59,946 bases of DNA. Origin: Parabacteroides sp. OttesenSCG-928-G21. Lineage in GTDB: Bacteria; Bacteroidota; Bacteroidia; Bacteroidales; Tannerellaceae. Below are positions 22,121 through 47,515 of the stretch, one piece after another. The translations under genes and the position numbers were made by a program. The first letter of the stretch is position 1. Each line of letters opens with the position of its first letter. The stretch lies in contig JAJDIA010000001.1 of NCBI GenBank assembly GCA_030266465.1, positions 1 through 59,946 of the forward strand, read 5' to 3'. The notes below the pieces were generated by a model, which searched no databases, was not told the origin of the DNA, and worked only from the letters and a program-made list of their open reading frames with translations.

Positions 22121-22208
22121 TGCCGACAATTGTCGGCAATTCTGCCGATAGTTATCGACAAGCCTGCCGATAATTATCAACAATTCTGCCGACAATTGTC
22201 GGCAATAA
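22121..22208. repeat. 4 x 22-bp tandem array of 18-bp palindromes (array a)
   Basis: U1 TGCCGACAATTGTCGGCAattc, U2 TGCCGATAGTTATCGACAagcc, U3 TGCCGATAATTATCAACAattc, U4 TGCCGACAATTGTCGGCAataa. The U1 and U4 cores are identical perfect palindromes. Confidence 0.95.
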
Positions 22209-22383
22209 AAATCGACGGCAAGAAACTGAAAAATAATCAAATAGAAATTCGCATTTCATGCAGAAGAAAAAAGACGGTATTGAGATAAAAATACCCTGCC
22301 TATTATTTTACTACCATCAACAACCTATCTATCTTATAAACTGTTATCTTTGTGACGACTATATTTGAAAAAAAGAAAAAGTT

Positions 22384-23172
22384 ATGAAAAAAGGATTTGC
22401 ATTGATTGCTTTATTGCTGCTTATGTCAGCTTGTTCCAGTGTGCCACTAACCGGACGTAGACAGGTTATGCTGGTTTCCGACCAGGAAATATTGACCAGT
22501 AGTTTTTCCCAATACAGTGAATTTATGAAGACGGCTAAGAAGTCGACCAATAAAACACAGACAGATATGGTTGTCCGCGTAGGCAAGAAGATTGCTGCTG
22601 CTACTGAAGAGTATCTGAAACAAAATGGTTTGAGTAGTGAAATTCAGAATTTTGCATGGGAATTTAACCTGGTTGCAGATCCGCAACTGAATGCTTTTTG
22701 TATGCCCGGAGGAAAGATTGTCGTTTATGAAGGATTGATGAATATTGTTTCTTCGGATGATGAACTGGCAGTTGTTGTAGGACATGAGGTGGCCCACGCG
22801 GTAGCGAAACACAGCAATGAACGTATGAGTCAGCAGTTGATGGCACAATATGGCGCTGCTATTTTGGGCGTGGCTGTAAGCAATAAAAGTGATGCGATAC
22901 AAGAAGTAGCCAGTACGGTATATGGGGTAGGCGCGCAATATGGCGTTGTTCTTCCTTTCTCTCGCAAACATGAGTCGGAAGCCGATTATATGGGATTGGT
23001 ATTTATGGCTATGGCCGGATATGATCCTTCTCTCGCGATTACTTTCTGGCAGAAGATGTCGGCAGGAAACGGTGGATCTGTTCCTGAATTTATGAGTACG
23101 CACCCAAGTGATGCCCGCCGTATTTCCGATATACAGAACTATTTGCCGGAAATCCAGAAATACAGGAGGTAA
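22384..23172 (+). CDS. M48-family zinc metallopeptidase lipoprotein
   Basis: Lipobox LLLMSACSS, the HEVAHAV zinc motif and a downstream E (ESEADYMG). Confidence 0.88.
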   Translation: MKKGFALIALLLLMSACSSVPLTGRRQVMLVSDQEILTSSFSQYSEFMKTAKKSTNKTQTDMVVRVGKKIAAATEEYLKQNGLSSEIQNFAWEFNLVADPQLNAFCMPGGKIVVYEGLMNIVSSDDELAVVVGHEVAHAVAKHSNERMSQQLMAQYGAAILGVAVSNKSDAIQEVASTVYGVGAQYGVVLPFSRKHESEADYMGLVFMAMAGYDPSLAITFWQKMSAGNGGSVPEFMSTHPSDARRISDIQNYLPEIQKYRR

Positions 23173-23252
23173 TTAGGAATTAAGAATTATGAGTTATGAA
23201 TTGAAAGGGATTTTATTCATAACTCATAATTTATAATTCATAATTCCTAATT
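23171..23252. terminator. long composite hairpin between convergent genes (bidirectional terminator)
   Basis: The inner 16-bp perfect stem pairs AATTATGAGTTATGAA (23185-23200) with TTCATAACTCATAATT (23216-23231). The outer 12-bp stem pairs AATTAGGAATTA (23171-23182) with TAATTCCTAATT (23241-23252). The structure overlaps both stop codons. Confidence 0.7.
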
Positions 23253-24820
23253 ATTCCCACTTCTTCAATAAAGTACCTGTCGTGAGAGATTAATAGGAGA
23301 GTTCCGCTGTATTCTTTGATGACGGAGGTGATGATTTCGACGCTCTGAATGTCCAGGTTGTTTGTGGGTTCATCTAAAATGAAGATATCCGGAGTTTGAT
23401 TGCCTATCATCAGACAACAGAACAACAGGCGCATTTTTTCTCCTCCGCTTAGTTTGGAACAGGGTTTATCCCAGGTGTCGAAAGAAAACAAATAGCGGTT
23501 CAACATCATCTTTATTTCATGTTCCTGAAATTGTCTGGTATTGAATTGTTGCGCTTGTTCATAGACGGTCAACTCATTTTGAATCAAAGAATACTCCTGA
23601 TCTATATATATGTAGTTAAAATCAGCACGTTCAATCCGGCCTGTTGTGGGAGTCAGTTGGCCTATTAAAATCTTCAATAAGGTAGTCTTTCCTGATCCGT
23701 TGTCGCCCTGAATTAAGATTCTGTCGCCGCTATGTATAATCAAGTCAACTGCATTACGCCATAAAAAGGTGTCTGTATAAGCATAATTAATCTGTTCTGC
23801 TTTTATAAGAATTTTCCCTTGATGCAGACCTGATGAATTGAAGTTGATTTTCATCTTACGGCTGTCCGGTGCAATAGCGCGGATTTTGTCTACACTCTCA
23901 GACAAAGAAGACATCTTGTTTGCATGAATATCTTTTAGTTTGGTGCCGCTTTTCTCCGCTTTATCTTTTAAGGTATTCATACCCATACGGCTGATTCCTT
24001 TTTTCTCGCTGAGTTTTTTCCCGCGGCTTTCATGCTTTTGCTTACGCTCTATACTCTCACGGGCGATTTTTTTAGCTAGTCGCAACTCTTTTTCTTTTTC
24101 TTCCAATGAGGCTTGCAGGGCATTTAACTGAATTTCTTTTTGCTCTTTATAAAAGTCATAATTGCCTCCGTAAACCGTGATTTTGTCTTTTTCCAACTCC
24201 ATTGTTTCAGGTAAAAGACGCAGCAGGGTGATATCGTGACTAACAATCATTAAGGTGGCATTTGTATGTTCAATCCATTGATAGAGTTCTTCCCGGCTAT
24301 GCCAGTCCAGATGGTTTGTCGGCTCATCCATCAAAATAATTTCCGGCGCATGAATTTGTAATCCGCTCAGAAATACTTTTGTTTTCTCTCCGCCGCTTAA
24401 AGAGGCGAAAGGTTGTTCGAGTGCGATATGTTCCAGTTTCCAGGAAGACAAGGCGGCAAGACTGCGTTCTTCAATAGTCCAGTCGTCATTTAGTATAGTG
24501 AAGTTATCTATAGAGGCATCCCCTTCCAATATCGCATGTAAAGCGTATAACTTATCTTTGATATGAAGCGCTTCCGCAACAGTCATCTGATCATACTGCC
24601 CGAAATGCTGCGGTATGTAATAGGGGGAAGAGGCGGTTTGTATACTACCCGACATCGGTGTGATACTGCCTGAAAGCATTTTCAATAGCGTTGATTTTCC
24701 GGAACCGTTTAATCCTACCAAAGCTACTTTTTCACCTTTATTGACGACACAGGAAATATCATTAAACAAAACGACATTATCCGGATGTATATAACTGATT
24801 TTTTGTATGACAATACTCAT
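23231..24820 (-). CDS. ABC-F family ATPase (two ABC domains, no TM domain)
   Basis: Two Walker A motifs (GLNGSGKST, GDNGSGKTT), two LSGGE signatures and a basic interdomain linker. The start is set at the ATG at 24820 (MSIVIQKISY); the track start at 24844 is a GTG. Confidence 0.88.
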   Translation of the reverse strand: MSIVIQKISYIHPDNVVLFNDISCVVNKGEKVALVGLNGSGKSTLLKMLSGSITPMSGSIQTASSPYYIPQHFGQYDQMTVAEALHIKDKLYALHAILEGDASIDNFTILNDDWTIEERSLAALSSWKLEHIALEQPFASLSGGEKTKVFLSGLQIHAPEIILMDEPTNHLDWHSREELYQWIEHTNATLMIVSHDITLLRLLPETMELEKDKITVYGGNYDFYKEQKEIQLNALQASLEEKEKELRLAKKIARESIERKQKHESRGKKLSEKKGISRMGMNTLKDKAEKSGTKLKDIHANKMSSLSESVDKIRAIAPDSRKMKINFNSSGLHQGKILIKAEQINYAYTDTFLWRNAVDLIIHSGDRILIQGDNGSGKTTLLKILIGQLTPTTGRIERADFNYIYIDQEYSLIQNELTVYEQAQQFNTRQFQEHEIKMMLNRYLFSFDTWDKPCSKLSGGEKMRLLFCCLMIGNQTPDIFILDEPTNNLDIQSVEIITSVIKEYSGTLLLISHDRYFIEEVGIIRNYEL

Positions 24821-24984
24821 AATTACGCTTAAAAATAGATGCACATAGCCTAAGATGATATGTACATTTGTTATGAAAATGAATGAATTAAAACCTGTTA
24901 CCCGATAGGATTTCGGGTAGAAATAGAATAGTTGTAAACTGGTTTTTACATTCTCATCGGAGTAATTATGTTATTTTGTTGGTG

Positions 24985-24992
24985 CAAAGATA
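24985..24992 (-). promoter_or_regulatory. Bacteroidetes-type -7 promoter box (TATCTTTG) upstream of the ABC-F gene
   Basis: The plus strand reads caaagata at 24985-24992, which is TAnnTTTG on the minus strand. This implies a leader of roughly 150 nt. Confidence 0.45.
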
Positions 24993-25098
24993 CGACCTTT
25001 TCCAAAAAAAACATAAAAAAAGGGAAATATTTACGTTATTGTTATAAGTTTGCGAAATAATCATAGTAAATTGTTCATCATTTAATTAGTTATATAAT

Positions 25099-25524
25099 AT
25101 GCGGAAATATTTGAATATTGCTTTGTGCGTGTGTGCGATTGTTGTCATGGTTGGCTGTAAAGGAACATCAACGAATCAAAACGTTCGGGAAACCTTATTT
25201 GACAAAACCCTGCCGGAAGTAAAGGCCTTGGTTGATGGGCGATGGGAATTAATAAGCGGAGAAAACGCTACGGAAATGGGTGAGTTTGAAAACACCTTTA
25301 TCACCTTTGACGGAGATCGCTATATCTGGTCGGAAGATGGTGTGGATCAGCCCGATGCTCTTAACTGGCGTTTGGCTCCTACAGGAGCGGGATATGATGC
25401 CTGGCTGATGGATGTTTTTTATGCGGATTCGCCCTCTTACCCCTTAGCTGTTGTTGGCGATACACTGTATATTCAGGATTGTACCGAGACCGCCTATAAA
25501 TATACCTTACTCCGGCGCAAATAA
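25099..25524 (+). CDS. small lipoprotein, lipocalin-like, function unknown
   Basis: Lipobox VVMVGCKG and a GRWELISGEN motif typical of lipocalin-like lipoproteins. Confidence 0.7.
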   Translation: MRKYLNIALCVCAIVVMVGCKGTSTNQNVRETLFDKTLPEVKALVDGRWELISGENATEMGEFENTFITFDGDRYIWSEDGVDQPDALNWRLAPTGAGYDAWLMDVFYADSPSYPLAVVGDTLYIQDCTETAYKYTLLRRK

Positions 25525-25610
25525 CGTTTTATTAGCTATTTAACAATTCTTTCTGAACAAATTCCTTCTTTCTCTGTTATTCATACGTAATTTATTATAA
25601 GGAAAGAAGA

Positions 25611-27830
25611 ATGAAACAGTTTTTTGCAAAAAGAAGTATTGCGTGTTTATTTACACTTATTATTTTAGGAGGAATAACAAGTTGTACAGACTTGCCTGAA
25701 AATGATGTAACGCCTCCAACTCCGGAACCTGGTGAAGAATTTTTTACATGGGAAAGTTCACATGATTTAAAAATAGAGGTAAAGGTTCCTGCAACATCCG
25801 ATGATTTCAATAATTTTTATCGTCGGGTTCAGATATTTACAGACAACTCTTTTGAAGCATCTGCTTTGATCGCTTCAGGAGCTGCACTGCCTACTCAGAC
25901 GTTTAAGACAGCGGTGACAGTTCCGACTTATGTGAATTCATTGTATTTTACAGTGAAAGATGCTGCCGGAAAGATAAAAACATTTAAAGCTGATGTCTCT
26001 TCAACAATGACCAATCTGACTTTAGATGTGGCAACTGCCGAAGAGTATGAAGTTTTAAGTAAAAGTGCTGTTGCGACTCCAACCCCTCCGGATATTACAA
26101 TCCCATCAATGGATGAAATGATTGTCATTACAGAATCATTCCCGGAAACAATAACCAAGGGTGCAAATTATTATATTCCTAAAGGAACAACGATTACGGT
26201 ATCTGATCCGAATGTATTTGGTGGTGTTAGTAAATATAATGATCGTGCTACGGCATCTATCTATGTGGAAGGGACGTTGAATGTGGCTAATGGTGCTACT
26301 AACGGTATTTTCAATAAACATATCATCGTTATGGACGGCGGTAAGTTTGTGACGGAAAAACTTTATTACGTTAAATATCACTATGCGGATGAATATGCTA
26401 TTCCTGCGTTGTATGTCATGGAAAACGGAAAAGTGGAAGCTGCTGATTTTACATTGCAAAATAAAATGATATTGGTCAACAAAGGTGTAATCGAATGTCA
26501 GACATTTACTACAAACGCACATTCTCAAACACATATCTCCGGCAGACTGACGGCCTCTGTAAAAGTAAATCTTTGGTGGCCTACATCTACCAGCTCTGTA
26601 TATCTATACCCGGGATCACTGCTGGAAGGAAGTGCCACATCCTGGTATGGTAACGCGCAGATCACCATGTATAAAGATGCGATCATCTATAATGCAGGAT
26701 CAATCAGCTATGGCGATACCTGTCGCTTTATTACTCCTGAAGGCGAGGCTACTTCATTGATCCGTTTTGATGGTGTTGCCGGAATTCCTTCAGCAAAAGC
26801 TTCATTTATTGGTCCGATAGAAGTCTTTATCCCTGGCATAGGTGGAAAACCAAAGGCAATTGAATTCTTTGAAAATACCATGTCGAATGGCGCAAAACTG
26901 GTAAGCAGCTGGGAAACCCGTGAATATCTGATTAAGAATAATGGTATAAATAAAGGATATGGTGAATTTACTCCGGTGGATTTGGATGGTGATGGTGTTA
27001 TCGGCGGTGATGATATTGATGATACGAATCCCGGTGTAAGTTTTGACAACTATTATCCGTCAGCCGAAGGCTTTGCTACGGTGATGTTTGAAGATGTCTG
27101 GCCCTATATCGGGGATTATGATATGAACGATATCGTGTGTGATATCCGTACCGAAATGAAAACCAATGCGAACAACGAAGTGGTGTCTATGACGTTCAAA
27201 TGGCGTCTGCGTGCCGCCGGTACGAAAAGCCAGATTGGTATGGGTGTGCAACTGGATGATATTTATCCGGCTGATATCAAGTCGGTGCAGTATTCCAGAC
27301 CGGTTAACGGAAACACGCCGTTTAGCCTGACCAATGGATTAGAATCCGGACAGGAAAAAGCTGTTTTTGCCCTCTTTAATACAGTGGAAGATGTATTTGG
27401 GAATATATATGTAAATACAGGTCATTCCGGCTATATCACACCTAAAACAGAGTCTGTTGAAATCGTATTTAACGCACCGGTAAGCCGGGGACGTTTGACT
27501 GAAAAGAAATTAAATATCTTCCTGACTGTAAATTCCCGCGAAAAAGAGATTCATCTGCCAACCTATAAGATGACCAATAAGGGTGTAAAACAGAACAGTG
27601 AATATCTATCTGCGGATAATATCTACCTGTCCAACACAGGCATGATGTGGGGTATTATGGTGCCTCAATCTATCGTTTATCCGAAAGAGGGAATAAATAT
27701 GGAGGCTGTTTATGGAAATTATAAAACCTGGTACGAATCGAACGGCACCACCAATCAGGATTGGTATAAAAGGAATATCAATTCCGGTAATGCCTTCATC
27801 GAACCGGTCGAAGAAGATGTCATTGAGTAA
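25611..27830 (+). CDS. LruC-domain-containing lipoprotein
   Basis: Lipobox LGGITSCTD. A calcium-binding-like DLDGDGVIGGDDIDDTNP is followed by VMFEDVWPYIGDYDMNDIV, the hallmark I associate with the LruC domain. Confidence 0.7.
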   Translation: MKQFFAKRSIACLFTLIILGGITSCTDLPENDVTPPTPEPGEEFFTWESSHDLKIEVKVPATSDDFNNFYRRVQIFTDNSFEASALIASGAALPTQTFKTAVTVPTYVNSLYFTVKDAAGKIKTFKADVSSTMTNLTLDVATAEEYEVLSKSAVATPTPPDITIPSMDEMIVITESFPETITKGANYYIPKGTTITVSDPNVFGGVSKYNDRATASIYVEGTLNVANGATNGIFNKHIIVMDGGKFVTEKLYYVKYHYADEYAIPALYVMENGKVEAADFTLQNKMILVNKGVIECQTFTTNAHSQTHISGRLTASVKVNLWWPTSTSSVYLYPGSLLEGSATSWYGNAQITMYKDAIIYNAGSISYGDTCRFITPEGEATSLIRFDGVAGIPSAKASFIGPIEVFIPGIGGKPKAIEFFENTMSNGAKLVSSWETREYLIKNNGINKGYGEFTPVDLDGDGVIGGDDIDDTNPGVSFDNYYPSAEGFATVMFEDVWPYIGDYDMNDIVCDIRTEMKTNANNEVVSMTFKWRLRAAGTKSQIGMGVQLDDIYPADIKSVQYSRPVNGNTPFSLTNGLESGQEKAVFALFNTVEDVFGNIYVNTGHSGYITPKTESVEIVFNAPVSRGRLTEKKLNIFLTVNSREKEIHLPTYKMTNKGVKQNSEYLSADNIYLSNTGMMWGIMVPQSIVYPKEGINMEAVYGNYKTWYESNGTTNQDWYKRNINSGNAFIEPVEEDVIE

Positions 27831-27865
27831 TAAAGATTAATTGTCGCAGGGTCTAACTTATTATG

Positions 27866-27896
27866 AAGGCTGTCCGTTAGGGCAGCCTTTTTTTTG
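27866..27896 (+). terminator. intrinsic terminator after the LruC gene
   Basis: AAGGCTGTCC-gtta-GGGCAGCCTT followed by a T-run of about 8. Confidence 0.8.
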
Positions 27897-28058
27897 ATTT
27901 TTGCGATTATCTTTTTGTTATCATAAAAGGCTCTTTAGTGACAATATTTTCGAAATAGGCAGTTTCTGCTAACGCGTACTTTTTCGAAAATCGAATCAAA
28001 AAGAGGGGAAATCGACAATTTTGCAATCTCGACATAGCAAAAACGCCTTTTTTGACCG

Positions 28059-28146
28059 AAATCATCACAATGATTTTTTGAAATCATTACAATGAAATTT
28101 CAAAATCATTGTGATGATTTTCGAATTTCATTGTGATGAATTCGGG
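28059..28146. repeat. 4 x 22-bp tandem array of AAATCAT-N4-ATGATTT palindromes (array b)
   Basis: U1 aaatcatcacaatgattttttg, U2 aaatcattacaatgaaatttca, U3 aaatcattgtgatgattttcga, U4 atttcattgtgatgaattcggg, with an exact 22-bp period. A fifth isolated copy, AAAATCATTGCAATGATTTT, lies at 28284-28303. Confidence 0.95.
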
Positions 28147-28565
28147 AAAAACCATCATGAAATGTTAAAAATCCGTCTCAAATCTACGGATTAACCGTAT
28201 TTAACTACTTGTTTGATTAAAATCCCGGGTGAAACAGATTTGACGTTTTGGTGGATTCAGTTCCGTATATTTGACACCTCTTCAAAATCATTGCAATGAT
28301 TTTTATTTGGGCTTTCATTTTGTCAGCGGATCGGTTTTTCGCCTGACATACTGAATTTCCTTGAGCCTCATTTTGGCGATTCTAATCGAATAGGCTCGTA
28401 CATAGACCCGAATAAACGATTCTACGAGGGGGTAAAATGACAGATTGATAGTTGGAGGGAAGGGGTTATTGTTTGAGGGGAGATTTTGACGATTTGATAA
28501 ATTGGATATTCGATTTTTGTAAGAAATGAAGGTTTTAAAGGGAGAAAGGAAGATATAAGTATCTT

Positions 28566-28732
28566 GGCTCCTTCCCTTAGAAAAGGGAAGGGTGGACCGC
28601 CGCTCTGCGGTGGTGGAAGGGTTTGATCATTTCTATCTTATACGAAATTTGAATAAACATTTATAAAGAATTCCAACTACCCCACCACGGCAAAGCCGCG
28701 GTCCACCCCCTTCTTTTCAAAGAAGGGGAGCC
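28566..28732. repeat. GC-rich imperfect inverted repeat (two ~51-nt arms, ~65-nt AT-rich spacer), each arm with its own sub-hairpins
   Basis: The left arm is GGCTCCTTCCCTTAGAAAAGGGAAGGGTGGACCGCCGCTCTGCGGTGGTGG (28566-28616). The right arm is CCACCACGGCAAAGCCGCGGTCCACCCCCTTCTTTTCAAAGAAGGGGAGCC (28682-28732). GGGTGGACCGC pairs perfectly with GCGGTCCACCC. Confidence 0.85.
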
Positions 28733-28866
28733 AAAATACTCATATATACACATCAAAACACCTTCAAATCTTCTTCAACTAATAAGCGTATAAATAGCTA
28801 TTCTATATTTTAAGAATGGCTATTGCTTTTTAGTAAGAGCAGATAGATGAAAGATTATTTATTCAA

Positions 28867-29308
28867 TTATATTTCATATTTAGCACGAGATAAAGTCCAG
28901 AGTTTGTTCCTTGCAGAGACAAAGTCGTCCCAACATTCATATAGCTTTAATGTGTCTGAAGTTAATTCTATTATTTCCAGATAAGGCCCGCTTTTAATAT
29001 CTCCTTCATATTTATATTTTCCATCAAAGGTGAGGAAAAAATATTTGTTATCGATAAATTCAAAATCGGATGCGTATACGGAGTGCATTCCTCCACCCCC
29101 CCCAATAACTTACAGTCCAATGATTGGTAAATGTAAAAGATCTGCCATTAATCCCAAAATCTGTATATGTTCTATCTTCAGAAGGATAGTAACATTCTTC
29201 AGCATCCCATTCTCCTATAATCGGATGATCGAACTTGAGTTTCTCTTCATTTTTGCTGCAGGCACCAGTTATAAATAGTAAGGCAATCAGACAAATAATC
29301 TTTTTCAT
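28867..29308 (-). pseudogene. lipocalin-like lipoprotein gene interrupted by a frameshift in a G8 homopolymer
   Basis: Track ORFs 29060..29308 (MKKIICLIALLFITGACS...SYWGGWRNAL*) and 28867..29088 (MHSVYASDFEF...) overlap at the C8 run at 29096-29103. Removing one G joins them into one ~147-aa ORF (...SYWGGGGMHSVYASDF...). Confidence 0.8.
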
Positions 29309-29392
29309 ATGGATAAATTTTAAGATATAGACAAATATAATGGTTTCTGCGGAAAAACAAAACCTTAAGAATCACGAGTGAACTACATACCC

Positions 29393-29430
29393 TAAAAAAA
29401 TAAGCTGTCTCAGGACGAAACAGCTTATTT
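29393..29430 (-). terminator. intrinsic terminator after the minus-strand Gfo/TIM-barrel gene pair
   Basis: TAAGCTGT (29401-29408) pairs with ACAGCTTA (29420-29427). The A-run at 29394-29400 becomes a U-run on the minus-strand transcript. Confidence 0.7.
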
Positions 29431-29453
29431 TATATCGTTTATGTAATAACTTC

Positions 29454-30431: not shown

Positions 30432-30438
30432 GATCGTA

Positions 30439-31893: not shown

Positions 31894-32175
31894 GATACAA
31901 ATGTTTTATTATAAGAACGATTAAAAAATCAATCTTCAAAACTATAAAATGATTGGGATATATTCAACCGAAGGGAATTGACATAAGTCAAATAGGGCTG
32001 GATTTGTCGGGAAAGATGGTTAATTTTTGTTATATATGCTATTTTTTTACAGTAACTCAAAACATTTTGTAGGGTTGCTCTGTTTTACAGAATCACATGT
32101 GAAAGCAGATAAAATATTATTTATTTACAAGAAAGTATGACGCATGATACGCGCTGATTTTTTCACAAAATGCGC

Positions 32176-32183
32176 TATCTTTG
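32176..32183 (+). promoter_or_regulatory. Bacteroidetes-type -7 promoter box (TATCTTTG) upstream of the hybrid kinase gene
   Basis: tatctttg at 32176-32183 lies 33 nt upstream of the ATG at 32216. It sits inside the track's longer ORF, which argues for the downstream start. Confidence 0.5.
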
Positions 32184-32215
32184 CACATTATTTATATATC
32201 AGATTGAGGGACCCT

Positions 32216-35377: not shown

Positions 35378-35414
35378 GGGGCTGTCCGATTTAATTTTTG
35401 GACAGCCTCTTTTA
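35378..35414 (+). terminator. intrinsic terminator after the hybrid kinase gene
   Basis: GGCTGTCC (35380-35387) pairs with GGACAGCC (35400-35407), followed by TCTTTTAT. Confidence 0.75.
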
Positions 35415-35507: not shown

Positions 35508-35595
35508 GCTTTTGACTCCTGTGAAAAAGCTTTTTGACAGCAGTGATAAACTTTTTTGACAGCTGTGCTAAAGCTTTTCGACTCCTGTCAAAAGC
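35508..35595. repeat. 4 x ~22-bp tandem array (array c)
   Basis: U1 GCTTTTGACTCCTGTGAAAAA, U2 GCTTTTTGACAGCAGTGATAAA, U3 CTTTTTTGACAGCTGTGCTAAA, U4 GCTTTTCGACTCCTGTCAAAA. The outer units resemble each other, as do the inner units. Confidence 0.85.
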
Positions 35596-35670
35596 ATAAA
35601 GCATTAGTAATAAAACAGACAATCATCACTATGATATAGGGGGAAGAATGTAATATTTTCCGGGTTTACG

Positions 35671-35694
35671 TTAATTTATACCTGGGTCTAACTG
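35671..35694 (-). repeat. solitary copy of the array-d unit (22/24 nt identical to 47425-47448)
   Basis: The minus strand reads CAGTTAGACCCAGGTATAAATTAA, against CAGTTAGACCCGGGTATAAATTTA at 47425-47448. Confidence 0.85.
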
Positions 35695-35732
35695 GTTTTA
35701 TAGGAGTTTTCTGGTATCACATTCCCTTTTTT

Positions 35733-37516: not shown

Positions 37517-37520
37517 AGGT

Positions 37521-38471: not shown

Positions 38472-38474
38472 GTG

Positions 38475-39218: not shown

Positions 39219-39228
39219 CTACTACTTT

Positions 39229-39972: not shown

Positions 39973-39974
39973 TA

Positions 39975-40619: not shown

Positions 40620-41173
40620 TAAAATGTCTCTATCAAATGAATGATATCATATGTGACATAATTAATTACAGGCATCAGGGAGTCTGTATTCAATTTAGTT
40701 TCAAAATAGAGTGCACCTCTGAAAAAGTGCGTAGTACTGTCGGTAATAAAAAACTGTACCGGCGAAGCGGCATTTCCTTCAATTTCGAAAAGAGTGGCAT
40801 ATACTTTGTTTTCCGCATCCACGTACTCGTTCTCAATAATATCAGATTCTCTTGCCTGACGTAATACTAACGAGCGGTTTTCGGATTCGACCTCTTTATA
40901 GGAAGAAGGAGTGATCGGTAGATAGCTACAATATATTTTTGCCTGTAATTGCGGATAGAATAGGTTTATCCATCCTTCAGGTTCAGTGACAGGAGGAAGT
41001 TCAACTGTTATTCCATTCGACAGTTCAAAGGCATAAGGAAGTTTATTGTCAGGAAGCAAAGTGTACTGCGGCTCCGGCAGTTCTATCCGAAAATAACCCC
41101 GTGGTTTAGGTGTATAGTCTATACAGGAAGATAAACTAATCAGTAAAAGGAATATATACTCAATCCTTTTCAT
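40607..41173 (-). CDS. gldD: GldD-like gliding-motility-associated lipoprotein
   Basis: Lipobox LSSCID followed by PKPRGYFRIELP. It lies immediately downstream of, and overlapping, a gldE-like gene, as in Flavobacterium. Confidence 0.65.
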   Translation of the reverse strand: MKRIEYIFLLLISLSSCIDYTPKPRGYFRIELPEPQYTLLPDNKLPYAFELSNGITVELPPVTEPEGWINLFYPQLQAKIYCSYLPITPSSYKEVESENRSLVLRQARESDIIENEYVDAENKVYATLFEIEGNAASPVQFFITDSTTHFFRGALYFETKLNTDSLMPVINYVTYDIIHLIETFYWKN

Positions 41174-42512
41174 GCTCTTTTTCTCTGTTTTTTTCTTCCA
41201 GATCAGTCAGACAGTTGAATTTTACTTTTAATATCCGGCGATGATCAATTTCCAAAACTTGAAACCGATAATTCCCATAAGTTATTATTTCTTGTCGTTT
41301 CGGAAAATCACCTTTTATTTCTAATAATAAACCGGCTAATGTTTCTACTTCATCCGTTAGTTTACCAAAATCAGCAGAAGGCACATCTATTATCCGGAAA
41401 AAATCGGTCAGCAATATCTTGGCTTCAAAAATTAAACTACCATCCGGCAAGACGATATATTGCTTTAGCTCTTCGTCATATTCATCAGATATTTCTCCTA
41501 CAATTTCCTCTAAAATATCTTCCATAGTAACGATCCCTGAAGTACCTCCAAACTCATCCACAACAATGGCCATGTGTATTTTATTCGTTCGGAATTCTTC
41601 CAGCAAATCATCAATTTTTTTTGTTTCAGGAACGAAATATGCGGGTCTTATCAAGCTTTGCCAACGGAATGTTTCCGGTTTATCTATATAAGGCAAAAGG
41701 TCTTTAATATAGAGTATCCCTTTAATATTATCTTCTGATTCCGAGTAAACAGGAATACGGGAATAGCCTGATTGAACAACAAAATCGATTACTTCCCGGA
41801 AATTCATTTTAATATCAATGTCTTCCACATCTAATCGGGAGGTCATAATTTCATCGGCTGTTTTATCATAGAATTTGATAATTTCTTCCAGCATCTCTTT
41901 TTCTTCCGGAATTTCAGAAGATGTGAGTTCCAATGCCTTGGATAGTTCGTCGACAGAAAGATCATATCTCTTTTTGCCTATAGTATTATTTACTACGAAG
42001 GAGGAAGATACCAGTAGACGAGCAAGAGGATGAGAGATCTTTTCTATGCTTTTAATGAAAGGAGCGGAGAAACGAACGAATTTCAACGGATTTTTCTGTG
42101 CATAAATCTTAGGCATAATCTCTCCAAACAGTAATAACAGGAAAGTTAATGCGATAATTTCTAAAATAAAACCGAATATCGGCGTGGAAGAAAAATCAAT
42201 CGTAATATTTATAGCGTAACTAAATAGTATAACTACTGAGATATTGGCAAAAATATTGGTGATTTGAATAGATGCCAACAAATATTCGGACTGTTCCAAT
42301 TGCTGCCGAATAATATTATCCATACGTTTTTTCCCTTCTTTGAGAATATGAAGGTCGTTGGGAGAAAGTGAAAAAAAAGCAATTTCGGAACCGGACACAA
42401 GAGCCGAAAGGCATAAAAATAACGTTGCGACACCCAAGGCAATTGCCGCACCGACAGTCAAACCATTTACAGATATTTGTTCAAATAAACTCGAAAAATA
42501 ATCAGAGTCCAA
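41160..42512 (-). CDS. gldE: GldE-like / hemolysin-family protein (DUF21 membrane domain, CBS pair, CorC_HlyC)
   Basis: 450 aa with N-terminal TM helices and CBS-pair sequence (IMTSRLDVEDID...IPVY). The C-terminal transporter-associated domain and synteny with ssb and gldD support the call. Confidence 0.75.
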   Translation of the reverse strand: MDSDYFSSLFEQISVNGLTVGAAIALGVATLFLCLSALVSGSEIAFFSLSPNDLHILKEGKKRMDNIIRQQLEQSEYLLASIQITNIFANISVVILFSYAINITIDFSSTPIFGFILEIIALTFLLLLFGEIMPKIYAQKNPLKFVRFSAPFIKSIEKISHPLARLLVSSSFVVNNTIGKKRYDLSVDELSKALELTSSEIPEEKEMLEEIIKFYDKTADEIMTSRLDVEDIDIKMNFREVIDFVVQSGYSRIPVYSESEDNIKGILYIKDLLPYIDKPETFRWQSLIRPAYFVPETKKIDDLLEEFRTNKIHMAIVVDEFGGTSGIVTMEDILEEIVGEISDEYDEELKQYIVLPDGSLIFEAKILLTDFFRIIDVPSADFGKLTDEVETLAGLLLEIKGDFPKRQEIITYGNYRFQVLEIDHRRILKVKFNCLTDLEEKNREKEHEKD

Positions 42513-42535
42513 AGATGTATAATTTAATTAAACAA

Positions 42536-43006
42536 TCAGAAAGGGAGATCATCCACTTCGTTGGAATCAGCAACTTGCGGCGATTGAGAAGCCACTGGCT
42601 GCTGGTATGTAGGAGCTTGCGCAGGTTGAGAGGCCGACTGAGTGGATTGACCGGTTGTGGCTCCTTCCGGCCTTCCGGTACTGTAAAACTCTACTCTGTC
42701 AGCATAAATTTCAGTCATATATCTTTTTACACCATTTTGATCATCATAATTGCGCGTACGGATTTTTCCTTCCACATAGACACTAGAACCTTTTCGTACC
42801 CATTTTTCAATGAAAGCAACCAGTTCACGACGTGCTACGATATTGTGCCATTCCGTACGTTCAGGCACTACTGTTCCATTAGCTAAGGTATAACCTCTTT
42901 CAGAAGTTGCCAAAGGGAAATTAGCGACAGCCCTGTTTTCATCAAAATAGCGAACTTCAGGATCCTTGCCTACATTTCCAATTAAAATTACTTTATTCAG
43001 TGACAT
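42536..43006 (-). CDS. ssb: single-stranded DNA-binding protein
   Basis: MSLNKVILIGNVGKDPEVRY, a Gln/Pro-rich tail and the C-terminal DDLPF. Confidence 0.93.
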   Translation of the reverse strand: MSLNKVILIGNVGKDPEVRYFDENRAVANFPLATSERGYTLANGTVVPERTEWHNIVARRELVAFIEKWVRKGSSVYVEGKIRTRNYDDQNGVKRYMTEIYADRVEFYSTGRPEGATTGQSTQSASQPAQAPTYQQPVASQSPQVADSNEVDDLPF

Positions 43007-43086
43007 ATTTTGGTATTGTTTTAATTTTCACAAAGAAACATAAATTCAATCATTCAAACAAGAGTCTGCAACAGGAAATAACAGAT

Positions 43087-43581
43087 TTAATTTCCACAAT
43101 ATTGCTGTATTAGCCTGTCAACAACCGTATCTCCAAGTTCTTTTGCTTTATGGAAAGACTGACAGGCTGCCGCTGTGTTACCTTTTCGTACCTGACAGAC
43201 TCCTAATAATCGGTGACTGTCAGCAAGTTCGGGACTTTGTTCTATGGCTTTCTGCAGACTGTTAATGGCGCTATCATAATCTTCCAACCGGATGTAGATA
43301 GCTGCTTCTTCTGCCATATAAATCGGATTACTCGGTGCCAGTCTTAAAGCCTGTTTGATGTCATCAAGAGCACTAACGTAATCTCCTTTTCGAAATTTAG
43401 CTTGTTCACGATAGTAAAAGAAAAGGTCGTTAACCTGTGCATTCAGTAAGGTATAATATCTGTCGAAATCGGCAATCGCGTCATCGTACAGCATAATTTG
43501 CAATTTGCAGTTCCCACGCTCCCATAATGCAACAACTGTTTCGTTCGTCGGGCTGTCAATACTCAGGTTGACAAAAAACAC
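43087..43581 (-). CDS. TPR-repeat protein, possibly 5'-truncated
   Basis: TPR-like repeats (AIADFDRYY..., ALDDIKQALRLAPSNP, AINSLQKAIEQSPE). There is no signal peptide. The only start is a GTG at 43581, directly against the truncated proC fragment. Confidence 0.6.
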   Translation of the reverse strand: MFFVNLSIDSPTNETVVALWERGNCKLQIMLYDDAIADFDRYYTLLNAQVNDLFFYYREQAKFRKGDYVSALDDIKQALRLAPSNPIYMAEEAAIYIRLEDYDSAINSLQKAIEQSPELADSHRLLGVCQVRKGNTAAACQSFHKAKELGDTVVDRLIQQYCGN

Positions 43582-43582
43582 C

Positions 43583-44047
43583 GCTTACGAAAATATTCCT
43601 GTCCCTACCATATTCCGGGTAATCCCCAATACAGCTATTGAAGTCAGGAGCAGTATGACCTTTGTTTCCGCATTCAATGCTTCCAAAGAACAAACAGAAT
43701 TGATCCTTCGTATTTTCAATGAATTAGGAAATGCGATGTTAATAGAAGAACGACTAATGGCAGCAGGGACAGCACTAGCATCTAGCGGAATAGCTTTTGC
43801 GCTTCGCTACATCCGCGCAGCTATTGAAGGAGGAGTAGAACTTGGTTTCTATCCGGAAGAGGCTCAGGAAATTGTTGTTCATACCGTTAAAGGATCCGTT
43901 GATCTTCTTTTGGAAAAGAAAAGTAATCCGGAGGCTGAAATTGATAAAGTAACCACTCCCGGAGGTATTACCATTAAAGGATTGAATGAAATGGAACTTT
44001 CGGGTTTTACATCGTCTGTTATTCGGGGATTGAAAGCAAGCAAATGA
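43583..44047 (+). pseudogene. proC: pyrroline-5-carboxylate reductase, C-terminal ~150 codons without N-terminal Rossmann domain or credible start
   Basis: ...PTIFRVIPNTAIEVRSSMTFVSAF...ALRYIRAAIEGGVELGF...IDKVTTPGGITIKGLNEMELSGF matches the central and C-terminal ProC blocks. The upstream in-frame sequence overlaps the TPR ORF on the other strand. Confidence 0.75.
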
Positions 44048-44115
44048 CCTTATTTTAATTAATCCCAAAACTATCTTCGCCTCAAAATAGTTATAAAATA
44101 AAAGTCAGAATAAAA

Positions 44116-44547
44116 ATGAAAAAGATTTTACAGGAATTTAAAGACTTTGCCATGCGTGGCAATGTAATCGACATGGCTGTCGGTATCATTATCGGTGGAG
44201 CTTTTGGAAAAATCGTTTCCTCTTTGGTCAACGATGTAATCATGCCGGGTATCGGTCTTTTAATTGGTGGCGTTAACTTTACGGATTTGAAAGTTACATT
44301 AAAACATGCAGTTATAGAAGGAGGAGCAGAAATCGCTCCAGCTGTCACCATCAATTATGGAAGTTTTTTACAACAAACATTTGATTTTCTTATCATTGCT
44401 TTTGTTATCTTTATGATGATCAAGGCGCTTAATGCATTGCAGAAAAAGAAAACTGAAGAACCTGCTGCTCCGGCGGAACCACCGGCACCACCTGCAGATG
44501 TTCAGTTACTCTCCGAAATACGGGACTTACTGAAAGAGAAAAAATAA
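44116..44547 (+). CDS. mscL: large-conductance mechanosensitive channel
   Basis: [38 protein letters not shown] is the canonical MscL N-terminus. Confidence 0.93.
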
Positions 44548-44647
44548 ACAATTATTCAGAAATTAAACAGGACGACAGGATTGAATTAATCATGAATTAA
44601 ATCACCTGCTCTGCCTGTATCTTTTCGTAACTACCAATATATTTCCG

Positions 44648-44655
44648 TACATTTG
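44648..44655 (+). promoter_or_regulatory. Bacteroidetes-type -7 box (TACATTTG) upstream of 44676
   Basis: tacatttg at 44648-44655 lies 21 nt before the ATG. Confidence 0.4.
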
Positions 44656-44675
44656 TCCGCATAATCTGTGAGGAT

Positions 44676-46160
44676 ATGAGAACAAAAGCATGGTTGATAT
44701 TGGTAGTTTTCTTTTCCGGTATTCCTTTCTTACAAGGAAAAGCTCAGGAAGAAATAACAAATACACTCACTTATCATGCGGAGACTTTTGGTTCGGTTGC
44801 CACTGGAAACACCACGCCCTTCTGGATGGCAAGCAACAACTATGGCGTCACCCCTATTGATGCCGGAAGCGGACTCCTTCGTGGAGGTATCACTATCAAC
44901 AAATCTCTTTATAGACATTTTTTCTGGAGAGCCGGAGCAGAAGCTATCATTGCTGCACCACGAGAAAAAAATATCTTCATCCAGCAATTATATGCAGAAA
45001 TTGGTTTCCAATCTTTTTTATTAAGTATCGGAAGTAAAGAACGCTACCGCTCTTTATATAACCGTAATCTTAGCTCCGGCGATATGATCCTATCCACGAA
45101 TGCGCGACCTATACCTGAAGTCAGCGTGGGCTTACCACAGTTTACAGTTGTTCCACTCACTAAAGGTTGGCTACAGGTCAAAGGAGAAATTACCGTCGGA
45201 AAAGCATTTGAATCAGACTATCTGAAAAGTTTTGCAAAACCTGACATACGCTATGTAAAAGATATTCTATGGCACTATAAATCCGCTTTTGTCCGTATAG
45301 GAGACACACGTAACGAAGCTCCTTTTTCTGTTGCATTCGGCATACAACATATAGCACAATGGGGAGGAGAGTCTACTGATCCAAACTGGGGTGTACAACC
45401 ACATTCACTGAAAGACTTCGTCCGTGTTTTCTTTGGTAGAAGCGGCGGAGAGGATGCTAGTGAAGGGGATCAGATTAATATATTAGGCAGCCACCATTTA
45501 TCCTATGAAATGAAATTAGGTTATACCAAAAAGACATGGGCCGTACATGCGTATTATCAACATATTTCCGCCGATAAATCGGGGCTTCTATTTTATAACG
45601 GTACAGATGGTTTATGGGGAGTTGAAGTGGATTTGAAACGTTTCAGTCCTATCAGAAAAATCGTAGCGGAGTTTATCACCACCCGTAACCAAAGTGGTTC
45701 ATTCCATTATATCAATTTTGATCATGCCGCACATCCCGGACGCGGAGGAGGGGATGATGATTATTATAATAACTGGGAATATGCTACCGGAAGTACCTAT
45801 TTCAATCGCTCTGTCGGATCCCCCTTGTTGATTTCACCTGAATACAATACGGATAATGAATTAGGATTTAAAAGCACCAGAGTTCGGGACTATCACTTAG
45901 GTTTAGAAGGGGACTTATCTCCTCAACTCTCCTATCGTTTTTTAATGACGGTAATGAATGGATGGGGAACATCGTATGCGCCTTTCCTGAAAAAGAAAAC
46001 AGGAACATCTTTGCTATTCGACCTCGCCTATACACATCCCAAACTATCCGATTGGCAGTTTATGGGATCAATCGGTGCCGATACCGGAAATATTACCGGA
46101 AAAAGCACGTATGGATTCCGTTTAGGTATCCGTAAACAAGGCATACTAAAATCCTGGTAA
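44676..46160 (+). CDS. outer-membrane beta-barrel protein, capsule-assembly Wzi-like
   Basis: Signal peptide, a TPFWMASNNYGV motif that I associate with the Wzi family, and alternating beta-strand character with an aromatic C-terminus. Confidence 0.5.
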   Translation: MRTKAWLILVVFFSGIPFLQGKAQEEITNTLTYHAETFGSVATGNTTPFWMASNNYGVTPIDAGSGLLRGGITINKSLYRHFFWRAGAEAIIAAPREKNIFIQQLYAEIGFQSFLLSIGSKERYRSLYNRNLSSGDMILSTNARPIPEVSVGLPQFTVVPLTKGWLQVKGEITVGKAFESDYLKSFAKPDIRYVKDILWHYKSAFVRIGDTRNEAPFSVAFGIQHIAQWGGESTDPNWGVQPHSLKDFVRVFFGRSGGEDASEGDQINILGSHHLSYEMKLGYTKKTWAVHAYYQHISADKSGLLFYNGTDGLWGVEVDLKRFSPIRKIVAEFITTRNQSGSFHYINFDHAAHPGRGGGDDDYYNNWEYATGSTYFNRSVGSPLLISPEYNTDNELGFKSTRVRDYHLGLEGDLSPQLSYRFLMTVMNGWGTSYAPFLKKKTGTSLLFDLAYTHPKLSDWQFMGSIGADTGNITGKSTYGFRLGIRKQGILKSW

Positions 46161-46164
46161 CAGC

Positions 46165-46902
46165 CTATTTAAACTCTTCCCACAAAGCTGACCGGATAAT
46201 TTCCTGCGTATGGTCCGCTACCTGTTGAAGTCCTTTATGAGAAACATCTGTTCCTTCTAAGGAGATAGGAGGATGAATAATCATTTCCATCCGATGCCGA
46301 CGCAAATTAAGAGTACCGATAGGTAGTACATAAAAAGGTCCGTTCAGTGTAATAGGGACAATTGGTAAATGCTGATCAACAGCCATCTGATAAGCACCCC
46401 GTTTAAACCGGATCATCTTACCATCATACGTCCGTGAACCCTCCGGAAAAACCACAATAGAAGCGCCTTTACGAAGCGCCTTCTCTGCCTCTTTCACACT
46501 ATTTGCCGCCGCCTTTGCACTGGAATTATCGACAAAAATAAAACCTGCCGCGCGACAGGCAGCACCCACAAAAGGTATCTTTCCAATCCCCGCTTTCATG
46601 ACCCATTTCACAGGCACCCGCAGAAAACCATAGATCATAAAAATATCAAAAGCACCCTGGTGGTTAGCCACAAACACATACGATTTTGTTCGGTCTATGT
46701 GCTCTCTTCCTTTTATCTTAATAGGACATAGCGCCAGCCAACAAGTAATCCTTGACCACAGCATTCCTGGATAGTAGGCAAATATCTTCTCGCCACCTAA
46801 TAAACAGCCTATAATGGTAGTCAATGCCGTTATTAGTGTAAGAACTAAAAAAACGGGCACAAATAACAACCAGGTATACAGAATGTAAAGTAACCGTTTC
46901 AT
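46165..46902 (-). CDS. plsC: 1-acyl-sn-glycerol-3-phosphate acyltransferase
   Basis: The NHQGAFD (HX4D) and FPEGSRT motifs, plus an N-terminal TM helix. Confidence 0.85.
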   Translation of the reverse strand: MKRLLYILYTWLLFVPVFLVLTLITALTTIIGCLLGGEKIFAYYPGMLWSRITCWLALCPIKIKGREHIDRTKSYVFVANHQGAFDIFMIYGFLRVPVKWVMKAGIGKIPFVGAACRAAGFIFVDNSSAKAAANSVKEAEKALRKGASIVVFPEGSRTYDGKMIRFKRGAYQMAVDQHLPIVPITLNGPFYVLPIGTLNLRRHRMEMIIHPPISLEGTDVSHKGLQQVADHTQEIIRSALWEEFK

Positions 46903-47041
46903 AGAAAAATCTTAATATATCACAAATATAACGGGTAAATCTGAGGCTTTCAATATTTTTATCTCAAAATATTTTCGGATTTGGGTTATTATCACTTTAT
47001 TTGCGGTAGAAAAAATTTGTAACAAAATAATATCTAAAACC

Positions 47042-47212
47042 ATGAATGTATTATTAAAAAATCTGGGAGTAATTATTCTCCTCATTGGTGTAGCTATATT
47101 GGCGGTTCCTGCTTTAACCGGCAGCATGTCAAATTCTGTATTAGCTGTTGGTCTTGTTGTTGTTCTAGTAGGCTACTTCAGTCATATTTTCCTCAACAAG
47201 AAATTTGATTAA
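47042..47212 (+). CDS. 56-aa two-TM small membrane protein (below the ORF-track size cutoff)
   Basis: ATG at 47042 gives MNVLLKNLGVIILLIGVAILAVPALTGSMSNSVLAVGLVVVLVGYFSHIFLNKKFD, with the stop at 47210-47212. A strong terminator follows 27 nt downstream. Confidence 0.6.
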   Translation: MNVLLKNLGVIILLIGVAILAVPALTGSMSNSVLAVGLVVVLVGYFSHIFLNKKFD

Positions 47213-47238
47213 TTCGACCAATTTTATCTACATAAAAA

Positions 47239-47273
47239 AGCCCGGTAGAAGATTTTTCTACCGGGCTTTTTTA
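47239..47273 (+). terminator. intrinsic terminator
   Basis: AGCCCGGTAGAA (47239-47250) pairs with TTCTACCGGGCT (47256-47267), followed by a T-run. Confidence 0.85.
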
Positions 47274-47374
47274 TTATTCATCTCGTATCACGCTGAAAAA
47301 CAGGAATCAGCCCGAATCCCTGTGTAGGCATTTCGTCTTTTCTAAAACGAAGTTTTTCTGTACCCATCATGTTG

Positions 47375-47405
47375 TTTTAGCCTATTCATCATAGGCTAAA
47401 ATTTG
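47375..47405 (+). terminator. second terminator-like hairpin, 10-bp perfect stem
   Basis: TTTTAGCCTA (47375-47384) pairs with TAGGCTAAAA (47392-47401), followed by TTTGATT. Confidence 0.45.
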
Positions 47406-47427
47406 ATTCATCATATCCAAAAATCAG

Positions 47428-47515
47428 TTAGACCCGGGTATAAATTTATTTTGACCCGGGTGTAAATAAAATTAGACCCGGGTGTAATCTGATTTAGACC
47501 CGGGTCTAACGGAAA
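47428..47515. repeat. 4 x 22-bp tandem array of TTAGACCCGGGTNTAA palindromes (array d)
   Basis: U1 ttagacccgggtataaatttat, U2 tttgacccgggtgtaaataaaa, U3 ttagacccgggtgtaatctgat, U4 ttagacccgggtctaacggaaa, with an exact 22-bp period. U4 contains the perfect 16-bp palindrome TTAGACCCGGGTCTAA. Confidence 0.95.

Follow-up and report, generated by a model that had tools for sequence, protein, structure and literature searches.

Recurrent 22-bp phased palindrome arrays in the intergenic DNA of Parabacteroides and other Bacteroidales

This work describes tandem arrays of short palindromic units in a 59,946-nucleotide stretch of Parabacteroides sp. OttesenSCG-928-G21 (contig JAJDIA010000001.1; hereafter the window), a chromosomal segment of a Parabacteroides-like member of the Tannerellaceae. 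Four of these arrays, denoted a to d, are built from about four units of 22 bp, and arrays with the same period recur across many Bacteroidales genomes. We propose, with confidence and doubt about evenly balanced, that the arrays represent one class of dispersed, fast-turnover, non-coding palindromic elements that resemble the repetitive extragenic palindromes and bacterial interspersed mosaic elements (REP/BIME) and on which dimeric proteins load along one face of the DNA; in the sampled sequence, the class is limited to the Bacteroidales. Within this reading, arrays a to d are four sequence families of the class. Such a class of 22-bp phased arrays is apparently undescribed. No description of a 22-bp tandem dyad architecture was found in full-text searches of the literature, in agreement with a preliminary description of the window, made from the sequence alone, in which the arrays were not recognised as a described repeat class.

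Sequences and array calling

All positions are those of the whole window. Arrays were called with Tandem Repeats Finder and with a lag scan covering every lag from 12 to 49 (≥ 3 copies, ≥ 70% identity). The comparison sample consisted of 80 loci around homologues of the ABC-F gene of the window, taken from Bacteroidota genomes, and was supplemented with further relatives; individual loci are indicated by their number (L010, L305 and so on) where they have to be told apart. The Bacteroidales part of the sample amounts to ~0.85 Mb and comprises Parabacteroides, Bacteroides, metagenome-assembled genomes (MAGs) of the Tannerellaceae, Dysgonomonas and the window itself. The census of genomic placement was based on 25 arrays.

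Period, frequency and taxonomic reach

In the Bacteroidales sample, the lag scan detected 21 arrays at lag 22, one at lag 21, three at lag 23 and three at lags 42-43, and none at lags 16-20 or 24-41. Besides lags 21-23, only lags 42-43 thus hold arrays, and the period histogram of Tandem Repeats Finder agrees with this outcome. Block-shuffled sequence contained nothing at a lag of 17 or more. No arrays at lags 21-23 were present in 0.77 Mb from Bacteroidota outside the Bacteroidales (Flavobacterium, Pedobacter, Chitinophaga and similar), lag-22 arrays were absent from 1 Mb of unrelated viral contigs, and 1.26 Mb of integrase-anchored gut mobile-element contigs yielded only five unique arrays at lags 21-23. 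The same steps are found in young, high-identity two-copy duplications, six of which occur at lag 22, one each at lags 21 and 23, three at lags 42-43 and none at any other lag. Chance is excluded as the origin of the arrays. The preliminary description had considered four such arrays in 60 kb unlikely to be coincidental, and had proposed that period 22 be compared with other periods and with shuffled sequence. This expectation is borne out and can be extended to many Bacteroidales genomes (21 lag-22 arrays vs 0 in the controls), since period 22 dominates in the ~0.85 Mb sample and the shuffles are empty at lags of 17 or more.

The density of ~30 arrays per Mb extrapolates to an order of 100-200 arrays per genome. 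Array length has its mode at about four units and ranges from three to eight. The four copies emphasised in the preliminary description therefore stand as the mode, but the exact layout of four units and 88 bp is not general, given this range and the in-phase continuation of arrays a and d.

The longer period is represented by a 42-bp array in the window (Table 1), which confirms an earlier remark on an array with about twice the period, and by a 42-bp array of 6.9 copies in L024 (14647-14936). These two arrays are unlike in sequence, and both have one dyad per unit. The 42-bp array is a second allowed period of the same phenomenon. A 21-bp repeat of 2.2 copies is also present in the window, at 11083-11129.

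Architecture of arrays a to d

Tandem Repeats Finder reported array a at 22121-22206 (period 22, 3.9 copies), array c at 35510-35593 (period 22, 3.8 copies) and array d at 47428-47509 (period 22, 3.7 copies). For array b, the program gave two period-22 rows that overlap (28057-28140), since the reverse complement of the first half forms the second. Both these calls and the sequence itself place the four arrays where they had been reported (Table 1).

Dyad complementarity within 9 nt on each side of the unit centre equals 0.89 for array a, 0.72 for b, 0.67 for c and 0.83 for d, against 0.25 by chance. The palindromic units that had been noted in a, b and d were recovered, whereas array c, to which only short inverted ends had been ascribed, proves to be dyadic as well. 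In array a, the outer units TGCCGACAATTGTCGGCA are perfect palindromes of 18-20 bp and the inner sites are weaker. Outer units pair with each other in arrays a and c, and so do the inner units; the centres of array c read TCCTG in the outer units and AGCAG or AGCTG in the inner ones. Array b is a global palindrome, because the centres CACA and TACA of units 1-2 mirror the TGTG of units 3-4. Unit comparison thus agrees with the earlier account of outer and inner pairing in a and c and of complementary halves in b.

A 154-bp segment with array a and its degenerate slots is bracketed by a 9-bp inverted repeat (GCATGAAAT at 22108-22116 and ATTTCATGC at 22253-22261), which barely exceeds chance (p ~0.085). 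The array d segment consists of seven 22-bp slots overall. Two of these, ATTCATCATAGGCTAAAAT and ATTCATCATATCCAAAAAT, are non-palindromic, so the 22-bp step also holds for non-dyad sequence. The single d-type module in the spacer of array c is identical to the edge unit of array d, on the opposite strand, at 25 of 27 positions. The b-type motif ATCAT-N4-ATGAT occurs five times in the window, with ~0.2 occurrences expected; outside the arrays, only b- and d-type units exceed chance as dispersed single copies in the window.

Table 1. Arrays, related units and neighbouring terminators in the window
Feature	Position	Copies and period	Unit and context
Array a	22121-22208	4 x 22 bp	outer units TGCCGACAATTGTCGGCA, inner units TGCCGATARTTATCRACA
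Degenerate a-type slots	22209-22252	2	in 22-bp phase with array a
Array b	28059-28146	4 x 22 bp	AAATCAT-NNNN-ATGATTT
Isolated b-type palindrome	28285-28302		AAATCATTGCAATGATTT, 140 bp from array b
Array c	35508-35595	4 x 22 bp	arms TTTTGAC / GTSAAAA
b-like unit	35620-35637		CAATCATCACTATGATAT, continues the 22-bp phase of array c (35576 + 44)
Single d-type module	35673-35699		with both linkers, in the array c spacer
Non-palindromic units	47384-47427	2 x 22 bp	ATTCATCATAGGCTAAAAT / ATTCATCATATCCAAAAAT, in phase with array d
Array d	47428-47515	4 x 22 bp	TTAGACCCGGGTCTAA plus variable 6-nt linker
Degenerate fifth d unit	47516-47537		ACATACCTGCGTCTGACTGGAA, same 22-bp phase as array d
42-bp array	11245-11515	6.5 x 42 bp	unit dyad CCCGA-AGTC-TCGGG
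Terminator hairpin	35380-35407		3' of the hybrid histidine-kinase gene; hairpin and DUF5715 stop codon enclose array c
Bidirectional intrinsic terminator	47238-47268		of convergent genes, beside array d
Second terminator	47588-47622		array d lies between both terminators

Sequence relationships among units

The preliminary description regarded the four arrays as unrelated in sequence. This holds for whole units, the similarity of which is not significant, but not for their centres: when aligned on the dyad, all four arrays share a S-A-Y N4 R-T-S core, namely GAC-AATT-GTC in a, CAT-CACA-ATG in b, GAC-AGCT-GTG in c and GAC-CCGG-GTC in d. The core is also carried by the arrays of L211, L055, L014a and L007. 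AC-N4-GT is found in 7 of 13 even-centred arrays vs 1/16 expected (binomial p ~6e-6, uncorrected for the post-hoc choice of the motif). The likeness between a-type units and L211 (CCGAC-N4-GTCGG) is marginal. Two perfect 18-bp palindromes in a Bacteroidetes MAG, TTCCGATAATTATCGGAA and TCCCGATAATTATCGGGA (L079, 12118 and 16362), which are 4 kb apart, resemble the inner units of array a.

The period remains fixed at 22 bp while arms range over 5-11 bp, centres over 0-7 nt and linkers over 0-6 nt. At least 20 units of the GTACC family, from several species, share constant outer arms, and their linkers are unrelated; the inner arms vary, with only 29 of 63 positions still complementary. Non-palindromic units are duplicated at the same step (47384-47427, L016 and L020), and self-complementary tetranucleotides are found at the centres (AATT, CCGG, AGCT, GGCC and CTAG).

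Dyad mismatches in arrays with a known sense strand comprise 24 G.U and 22 A.C pairs, without strand asymmetry. The absence of a G.U bias and the constant 22-bp period despite varying arms and loops point to a helix-phased constraint at the DNA level, and a constraint acting on duplex DNA is favoured. As single strands, arrays a to d fold into long hairpins with minimum free energies of -30 to -56 kcal/mol and z-scores of -4 to -12, values that palindromy gives trivially. No Rfam match at gathering thresholds was obtained in the window, on which ground a known RNA family was rejected. The sub-threshold matches of the arrays are miRNA precursors only, because the arrays form a generic long hairpin.

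Turnover at orthologous spacers

Comparison of orthologous spacers shows that closely related species differ by the gain, loss and replacement of arrays. In a spacer between conserved co-directional genes, Parabacteroides goldsteinii (L010) has 6.3 copies of a 23-bp unit (CACAACGACCTTGTG), and in Parabacteroides segnis (L008), the flanks of which are 92-96% identical, three kinds of palindrome make up a different mosaic with ~7 slots of 22 bp. The same spacer is array-free and only ~30-60 bp long in two other Parabacteroides (L015 and L013). A Bacteroides spacer contains a GTACC-N7-GGTAC array in L031 and L044, none in L035 and a different array in L030.

Array d is kept in a relative with 99% amino-acid identity, with two changes in 88 bp vs a flank divergence of ~8%; these are parallel, an identical C-to-A substitution having occurred in each outer unit. 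It is missing in an 87% relative, in which the spacer holds only the shared terminator of 75 bp. At the array c site, the spacer of a 93% relative is unrelated from the stop codon onward, and its contigs from three samples all stop 99 bp downstream. The preliminary description had suggested that the architecture might be conserved in orthologous spacers while the sequence drifts. The sequence does change, but close relatives often have no array or a different one, array d of the 99% relative being a case of retention.

Contig ends coincide with array borders as well. A Logan contig of the window's own strain terminates at 22105, the edge of the array a segment, and short-read contigs of the strain or species also terminate at 35713, 47385 and 47531. 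The MAG contig ends at 47385 and 47531 bracket the whole seven-slot segment of array d. Such ends fit polymorphism or multicopy sequence.

Members of one family at different loci

The key result for dispersal is a c-type array in L305, a relative whose ArgR is 88% identical. In L305, the argR upstream region starts inside this array (...CAGTGATAAAC / CTTTTTCACTCCTGTCGAAAAC / CTTTTTGACAGGAGTCAAAAGC / AAAAAA), the last unit of which is, together with its flank, identical to array c of the window at 29 of 32 positions, the units being reordered and flipped. In the window, the same site upstream of argR is occupied by array a, and array c is located 13 kb away. No array is present upstream of argR in the more distant, 66% relatives L306 and L307.

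Other families behave similarly. Two Parabacteroides species have TGAGAA/TTCTCA-type arrays (TGAGAATTTTTTCTCA) at loci that are unrelated (profile score 0.73 vs a null maximum of 0.57), and GTACC-N7-GGTAC arrays occur at at least four loci without flank homology (L031/L044, L344, L381 and L328). In the array c spacer, a single d-type module and an in-phase b-like unit accompany array c. Flipped modules were observed in array b, L305, L216 and L025. Overall, families recur at two to five loci across species.

Two palindromes upstream of argR, TGTATAAAAATACA (21913-21926) and TGTATAAATATTCA (21955-21968), are 42 bp apart and are kept in L305, L306 and L307. They flank the TAnnTTTG promoter box TATATTTG of the argR-argG-argC-argD operon, and these ARG-box-like sites are probably the true ArgR operators. 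Array a was rejected as an ArgR operator, as these three relatives have no a-type array upstream of argR (c-type in L305, none in L306 and L307).

In viral sequence, the TGAGAA and d units matched only at isolated single sites, none of them within an array. A separate observation was made in small environmental viral contigs (L403 at ~3960 on the minus strand, L311, L322, L347 and others), which contain the array GGTACATCTAGTACC TATGAAG GGTACTACTAGTGCC ATAGTAT GGTACTACTAGTGCC near the contig end. This conserved array, with 15-bp dyads and a period of 22 bp, resembles a phage operator or a phage origin array.

Genomic placement

All 25 arrays are intergenic, with 6 in divergent, 6 in convergent and 12 in co-directional spacers and one at a locus edge. 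The preliminary description had drawn an argument from the 3'-3' spacers in which three of the four arrays of the window are located. This bias is not general, because the 25 arrays occupy every type of spacer and only 6 are convergent. The arrays of L031 and L044 are positioned between a stop codon and an intrinsic terminator, those of L010 and L008 between co-directional genes whose spacers are short when array-free, and array a in a divergent spacer, 195-280 bp upstream of the argR promoter. Wherever the anatomy is resolvable, arrays are found in "safe" DNA.

The housekeeping genes of the window include the argR-argG-argC-argD operon, the ABC-F gene, a SusC/SusD pair, PhoH and purC; no tRNA genes were found in the window. 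Genes neighbouring arrays encode ArgR, an M48 peptidase, a DUF4842 protein, a histidine kinase, a DUF5715 protein, an aminotransferase and an acyltransferase. The genes that flank arrays of the same family are unrelated to one another, and a regulon logic was rejected on that account. Tyrosine integrases adjoin two arrays (L014b and L055), which is not significant at 2 of ~50 flanking genes. In L014 (13478-15547) and L055 (543-2830), a 22-bp array has a Bacteroides-type tyrosine integrase gene on one side and, on the other, fimbrial genes in L014 and a SusC-like gene in L055, which is the layout of invertible-promoter loci.

Comparison with known repeat systems

The arrays resemble the REP/BIME of Enterobacteria and Pseudomonas, among which REPINs are mobilised by RAYT transposases, in several respects: they are short imperfect extragenic palindromes, often located between stop codon and terminator or within operons; they form mosaics with units in both orientations; their presence or absence varies among close relatives; their density is comparable; and several families may be present per genome. 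The extragenic, clustered and alternating palindromes that define REP/BIME are found here as well (25 of 25 arrays intergenic, dyads, flipped modules). Host proteins bind BIMEs at the DNA level. In REP/BIME, a single consensus reaches tens to hundreds of copies in a genome, and REPs flank the gene of the cognate Y1 (RAYT) transposase. The arrays differ from REP/BIME in that they consist of 22-bp modules placed head to tail with a strict helical period, in that they belong to many families (four in 60 kb) with only the arms conserved within an array, and in that neither a GTAG-type guide motif nor a RAYT gene was identified, the latter among the window genes scanned with Pfam.

BrickBuilt and 464/PgRS are intergenic repeats of Porphyromonas gingivalis, which belongs to the same order. 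Together with REP/BIME, they are the known elements nearest in concept to the arrays. Tandem direct repeats of 22, 23 and 41 nt have been recorded in strain W83, and periods of 22-23 and 41 nt are the same two period classes as 22 and 42 here (PMC4596501). BrickBuilt varies in copy number among strains, its authors suggest mobility, and it is characterised by a 23-nt brick consensus, a conserved leader and tail, IS5-like terminal inverted repeats and target-site duplications; its bricks are not described as palindromes (PMC4596501). Membership of BrickBuilt was rejected because the arrays have different units, several dyad families, no shared leader or tail and no terminal inverted repeats.

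Dyads on one face are also typical of cooperative arrays such as HipB O1-O4, lambda OR1-3, the 22-bp iterons of pPS10 and R6K and the 12 units of 43 bp of F sopC. These comprise three to twelve sites at two or four helical turns, with periods of 22 and 43 bp. Known cooperative arrays adjoin their cognate repressor, rep or parAB gene and are conserved with it, whereas the arrays described here have no cognate gene nearby, take unfixed positions and occur with the same type at unrelated loci. Plasmid iterons (non-palindromic direct repeats of 17-22 bp beside a rep gene and a region that is AT-rich or has DnaA boxes) were rejected because the units are dyads and no rep gene is among the neighbours, and a partition centromere of the sopC/parC type was rejected because of the absence of par genes among the Pfam-scanned window genes and the chromosomal housekeeping context. 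The iteron and partition-site readings raised in the preliminary description fall with this lack of adjacent rep or par genes.

CRISPR arrays have repeats of 23-50 bp, unique spacers of similar length and usually cas genes. They were rejected as an identity for arrays a to d, in which units abut with linkers of only 0-6 nt and cas genes are absent. Separately, a CRISPR array was encountered in L030 (7654-8299), with 47-nt repeats GTTGTGATTTGCTTTCATTTTAGTATCTTTGAACCATTGGAAACAAC, ~30-nt unique spacers and the long repeat typical of Bacteroidetes type II-C. Bacteroidota have been reported to be rich in miniature transposable elements with inverted repeats (MITEs) by inverted-repeat-based finders, which could pick up an 88-bp palindromic array as a candidate; the 22-bp tandem dyad architecture is not described in that report, in the main text of which 'tandem' occurs 0 times (PMC11602168).

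Other features of the window

A conserved miniature open reading frame (mini-ORF) is present in the leader of the ABC-F gene (23231-24844), 3' of a TAnnTTTG promoter box, at 24946-24992 on the minus strand of the window. Its sequence in the window is ATGAGAATGTAA (MRM*), and the relatives L004-L020 have ATGAGAATATCTAAATAA (MRISK*), ~100-200 nt upstream of the ABC-F start. The mini-ORF looks like a leader-peptide attenuator typical of antibiotic-responsive ABC-F genes.

The region of array b is a gene-poor stretch of 1.6 kb (27831-29453) with no long ORF apart from a pair at 28867-29308 on the minus strand. These overlapping ORFs of 73 and 82 amino acids look like one frameshifted gene, the second having a lipoprotein signal peptide. 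A long-range inverted repeat, GAAAAGGGAAGGGTGGACCGCCGC ... GCGGTCCACCCCCTTCTTTTC, located near array b at ~28577-28730, may represent a small element or a structured RNA.

Outside array d, a His_leader-like Rfam match on the minus strand (47232-47375) is sub-threshold, with 34.6 bits vs a gathering score of 49. It covers a 30-codon ORF (47278-47370) followed by the shared terminator, and falls in ~385 bp of extra spacer that is missing from the 87% relative.

Discussion

In the reading that we prefer, an element would be a run of 22-bp modules, modally ~4, in which the module is usually a short dyad, often centred on S-A-Y N4 R-T-S, and the whole array would form an imperfect palindrome of ~88-150 bp. 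The 22-bp module places the dyads two helical turns apart and therefore on one face of the duplex. Arrays would grow through duplication in the 22-bp register, and could spread and be overwritten by copying at the DNA level, whether by template switching, gene conversion between arrays or a candidate enzyme that recognises their structure. The conserved arms and the phasing may be explained by dimeric DNA-binding proteins loaded side by side on one face, for which a mobilising enzyme or a host architectural protein are candidates. Among the three meanings offered in the preliminary description, non-autonomous elements that diverge in sequence and retain their architecture are the best supported, as one family is found at several loci and several families at one locus. 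Binding arrays for dimeric proteins, another of these meanings, are compatible with the data as a biochemical mode but not as locus-specific operators, array a not being an ArgR operator.

Several observations count against a class of mobile REP/BIME-like elements. No transposase, RAYT-like or other mobilising gene was found among the window genes scanned with Pfam, consistent terminal inverted repeats are lacking (p < 0.1 vs shuffles in only 3-4 of 21 arrays), and no target-site duplications were seen at L010/L008, at the Bacteroides spacer (L031/L044) or in the array d spacers. The last two results also led us to reject a MITE structure, for which flanking inverted repeats and flank duplications were looked for in these arrays and spacers. 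Arrays a to d had no blastn match in plasmid sequence (7.3 Gb) or phage sequence (2.3 Gb); together with the few arrays on integrase-anchored contigs, this led to the rejection of a plasmid or phage origin. A metagenome-wide scan with the d module returned only 3 matches, none with any similarity to the window. The retention of arms while loops and linkers are saturated suggests a host-level function more than pure selfishness. Many distinct arms would, moreover, need many proteins, or a single one that reads only the degenerate SAY-N4-RTS core, a core that only about half of the arrays possess. Finally, the number of arrays per genome is extrapolated from 20-60 kb of sequence per genome.

We regard it as quite improbable that each array is a locus-specific operator, i.e. 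a cooperative site at which four dimers of a transcription factor for the adjacent genes bind one face, as HipB, lambda CI or ArgR do. Dyad units of 16-18 bp at two-turn spacing, the perfect outer and weaker inner sites of array a, its position upstream of the argR-argG-argC-argD operon and the conservation of the L031 and L044 family arms without covariation all speak for such operators. However, the argR upstream region is not conserved in this respect: its array is of type a in the window and of type c in the 88% relative, the 66% relatives have none, and ARG-box-like palindromes are kept instead. In addition, 18 of 25 arrays are found in convergent or co-directional spacers, some between stop codon and terminator, and arrays of one family adjoin unrelated genes. 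A location between stop codon and intrinsic terminator or between co-directional genes, as seen for several arrays, would suit RNA modules that are transcribed in 3' untranslated or intercistronic regions and act, as four hairpins or one ~40-bp stem, in mRNA stabilisation, termination or processing or as a small RNA. All four arrays do fold into long hairpins, and structure is retained over diverse sequences. Four-hairpin RNA modules had been the remaining meaning offered in the preliminary description, but they are unsupported and improbable: G.U and A.C mismatches on the sense strand are balanced at 24 vs 22, the loop tetranucleotides are self-complementary, the 22-bp period is constant despite differing stem and loop sizes, and family arms are conserved in sequence and do not covary. 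Furthermore, 6 of 25 arrays occupy divergent promoter spacers, array d is enclosed by two terminators, no Rfam family matches and the fold z-scores follow trivially from palindromy.

The arrays might also be a neutral mutational by-product, with Bacteroidales replication or repair duplicating steps of ~22 bp (or ~42 bp), template switching turning these into palindromes and ectopic conversion causing the likeness between loci. Tandem duplications are indeed restricted to lags 21-23 and 42-43 and include young two-copy and non-palindromic units (47384-47427, L016 and L020), turnover is fast, and the GTACC inner arms are partly palindromic (29 of 63 positions), as expected of decaying perfect palindromes. 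We nevertheless consider this origin unlikely, as the outer arms persist in different species and at different loci while loops and linkers have become saturated, array d has diverged less than its flanks, and copy number peaks near four without geometric decay. To our knowledge, there is also no mechanism that gives a 22-bp step.

Beyond the proposed class of dispersed elements, the sharp 22- and 42-bp periodicity implies a specific protein or mechanism. Bacteroidales may, as a possible but doubtful extension, possess a molecular-ruler system, consisting of either a module-writing enzyme or filament-forming DNA-binding proteins. In the case of an enzyme, dyad modules of 22 and 42 bp would be written or copied into intergenic DNA, a new mode of mobility without terminal inverted repeats or target-site duplications. 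In the case of proteins, the ~100-200 arrays per genome would be dedicated, relocatable loading sites, for instance to structure the chromosome or to manage supercoils.

Bacteroides and Parabacteroides belong to the gut bacteria that have been studied most, and our results suggest that strictly phased palindrome arrays number on the order of a hundred in each of their genomes. Such arrays are a source of assembly breaks and of a hidden hypervariability of intergenic DNA, and from their positions in promoters, 3' regions and co-directional spacers they could affect transcription, supercoiling and mRNA ends. If they are mobile, the Bacteroidales would have in them a counterpart of REP/BIME that differs in geometry.

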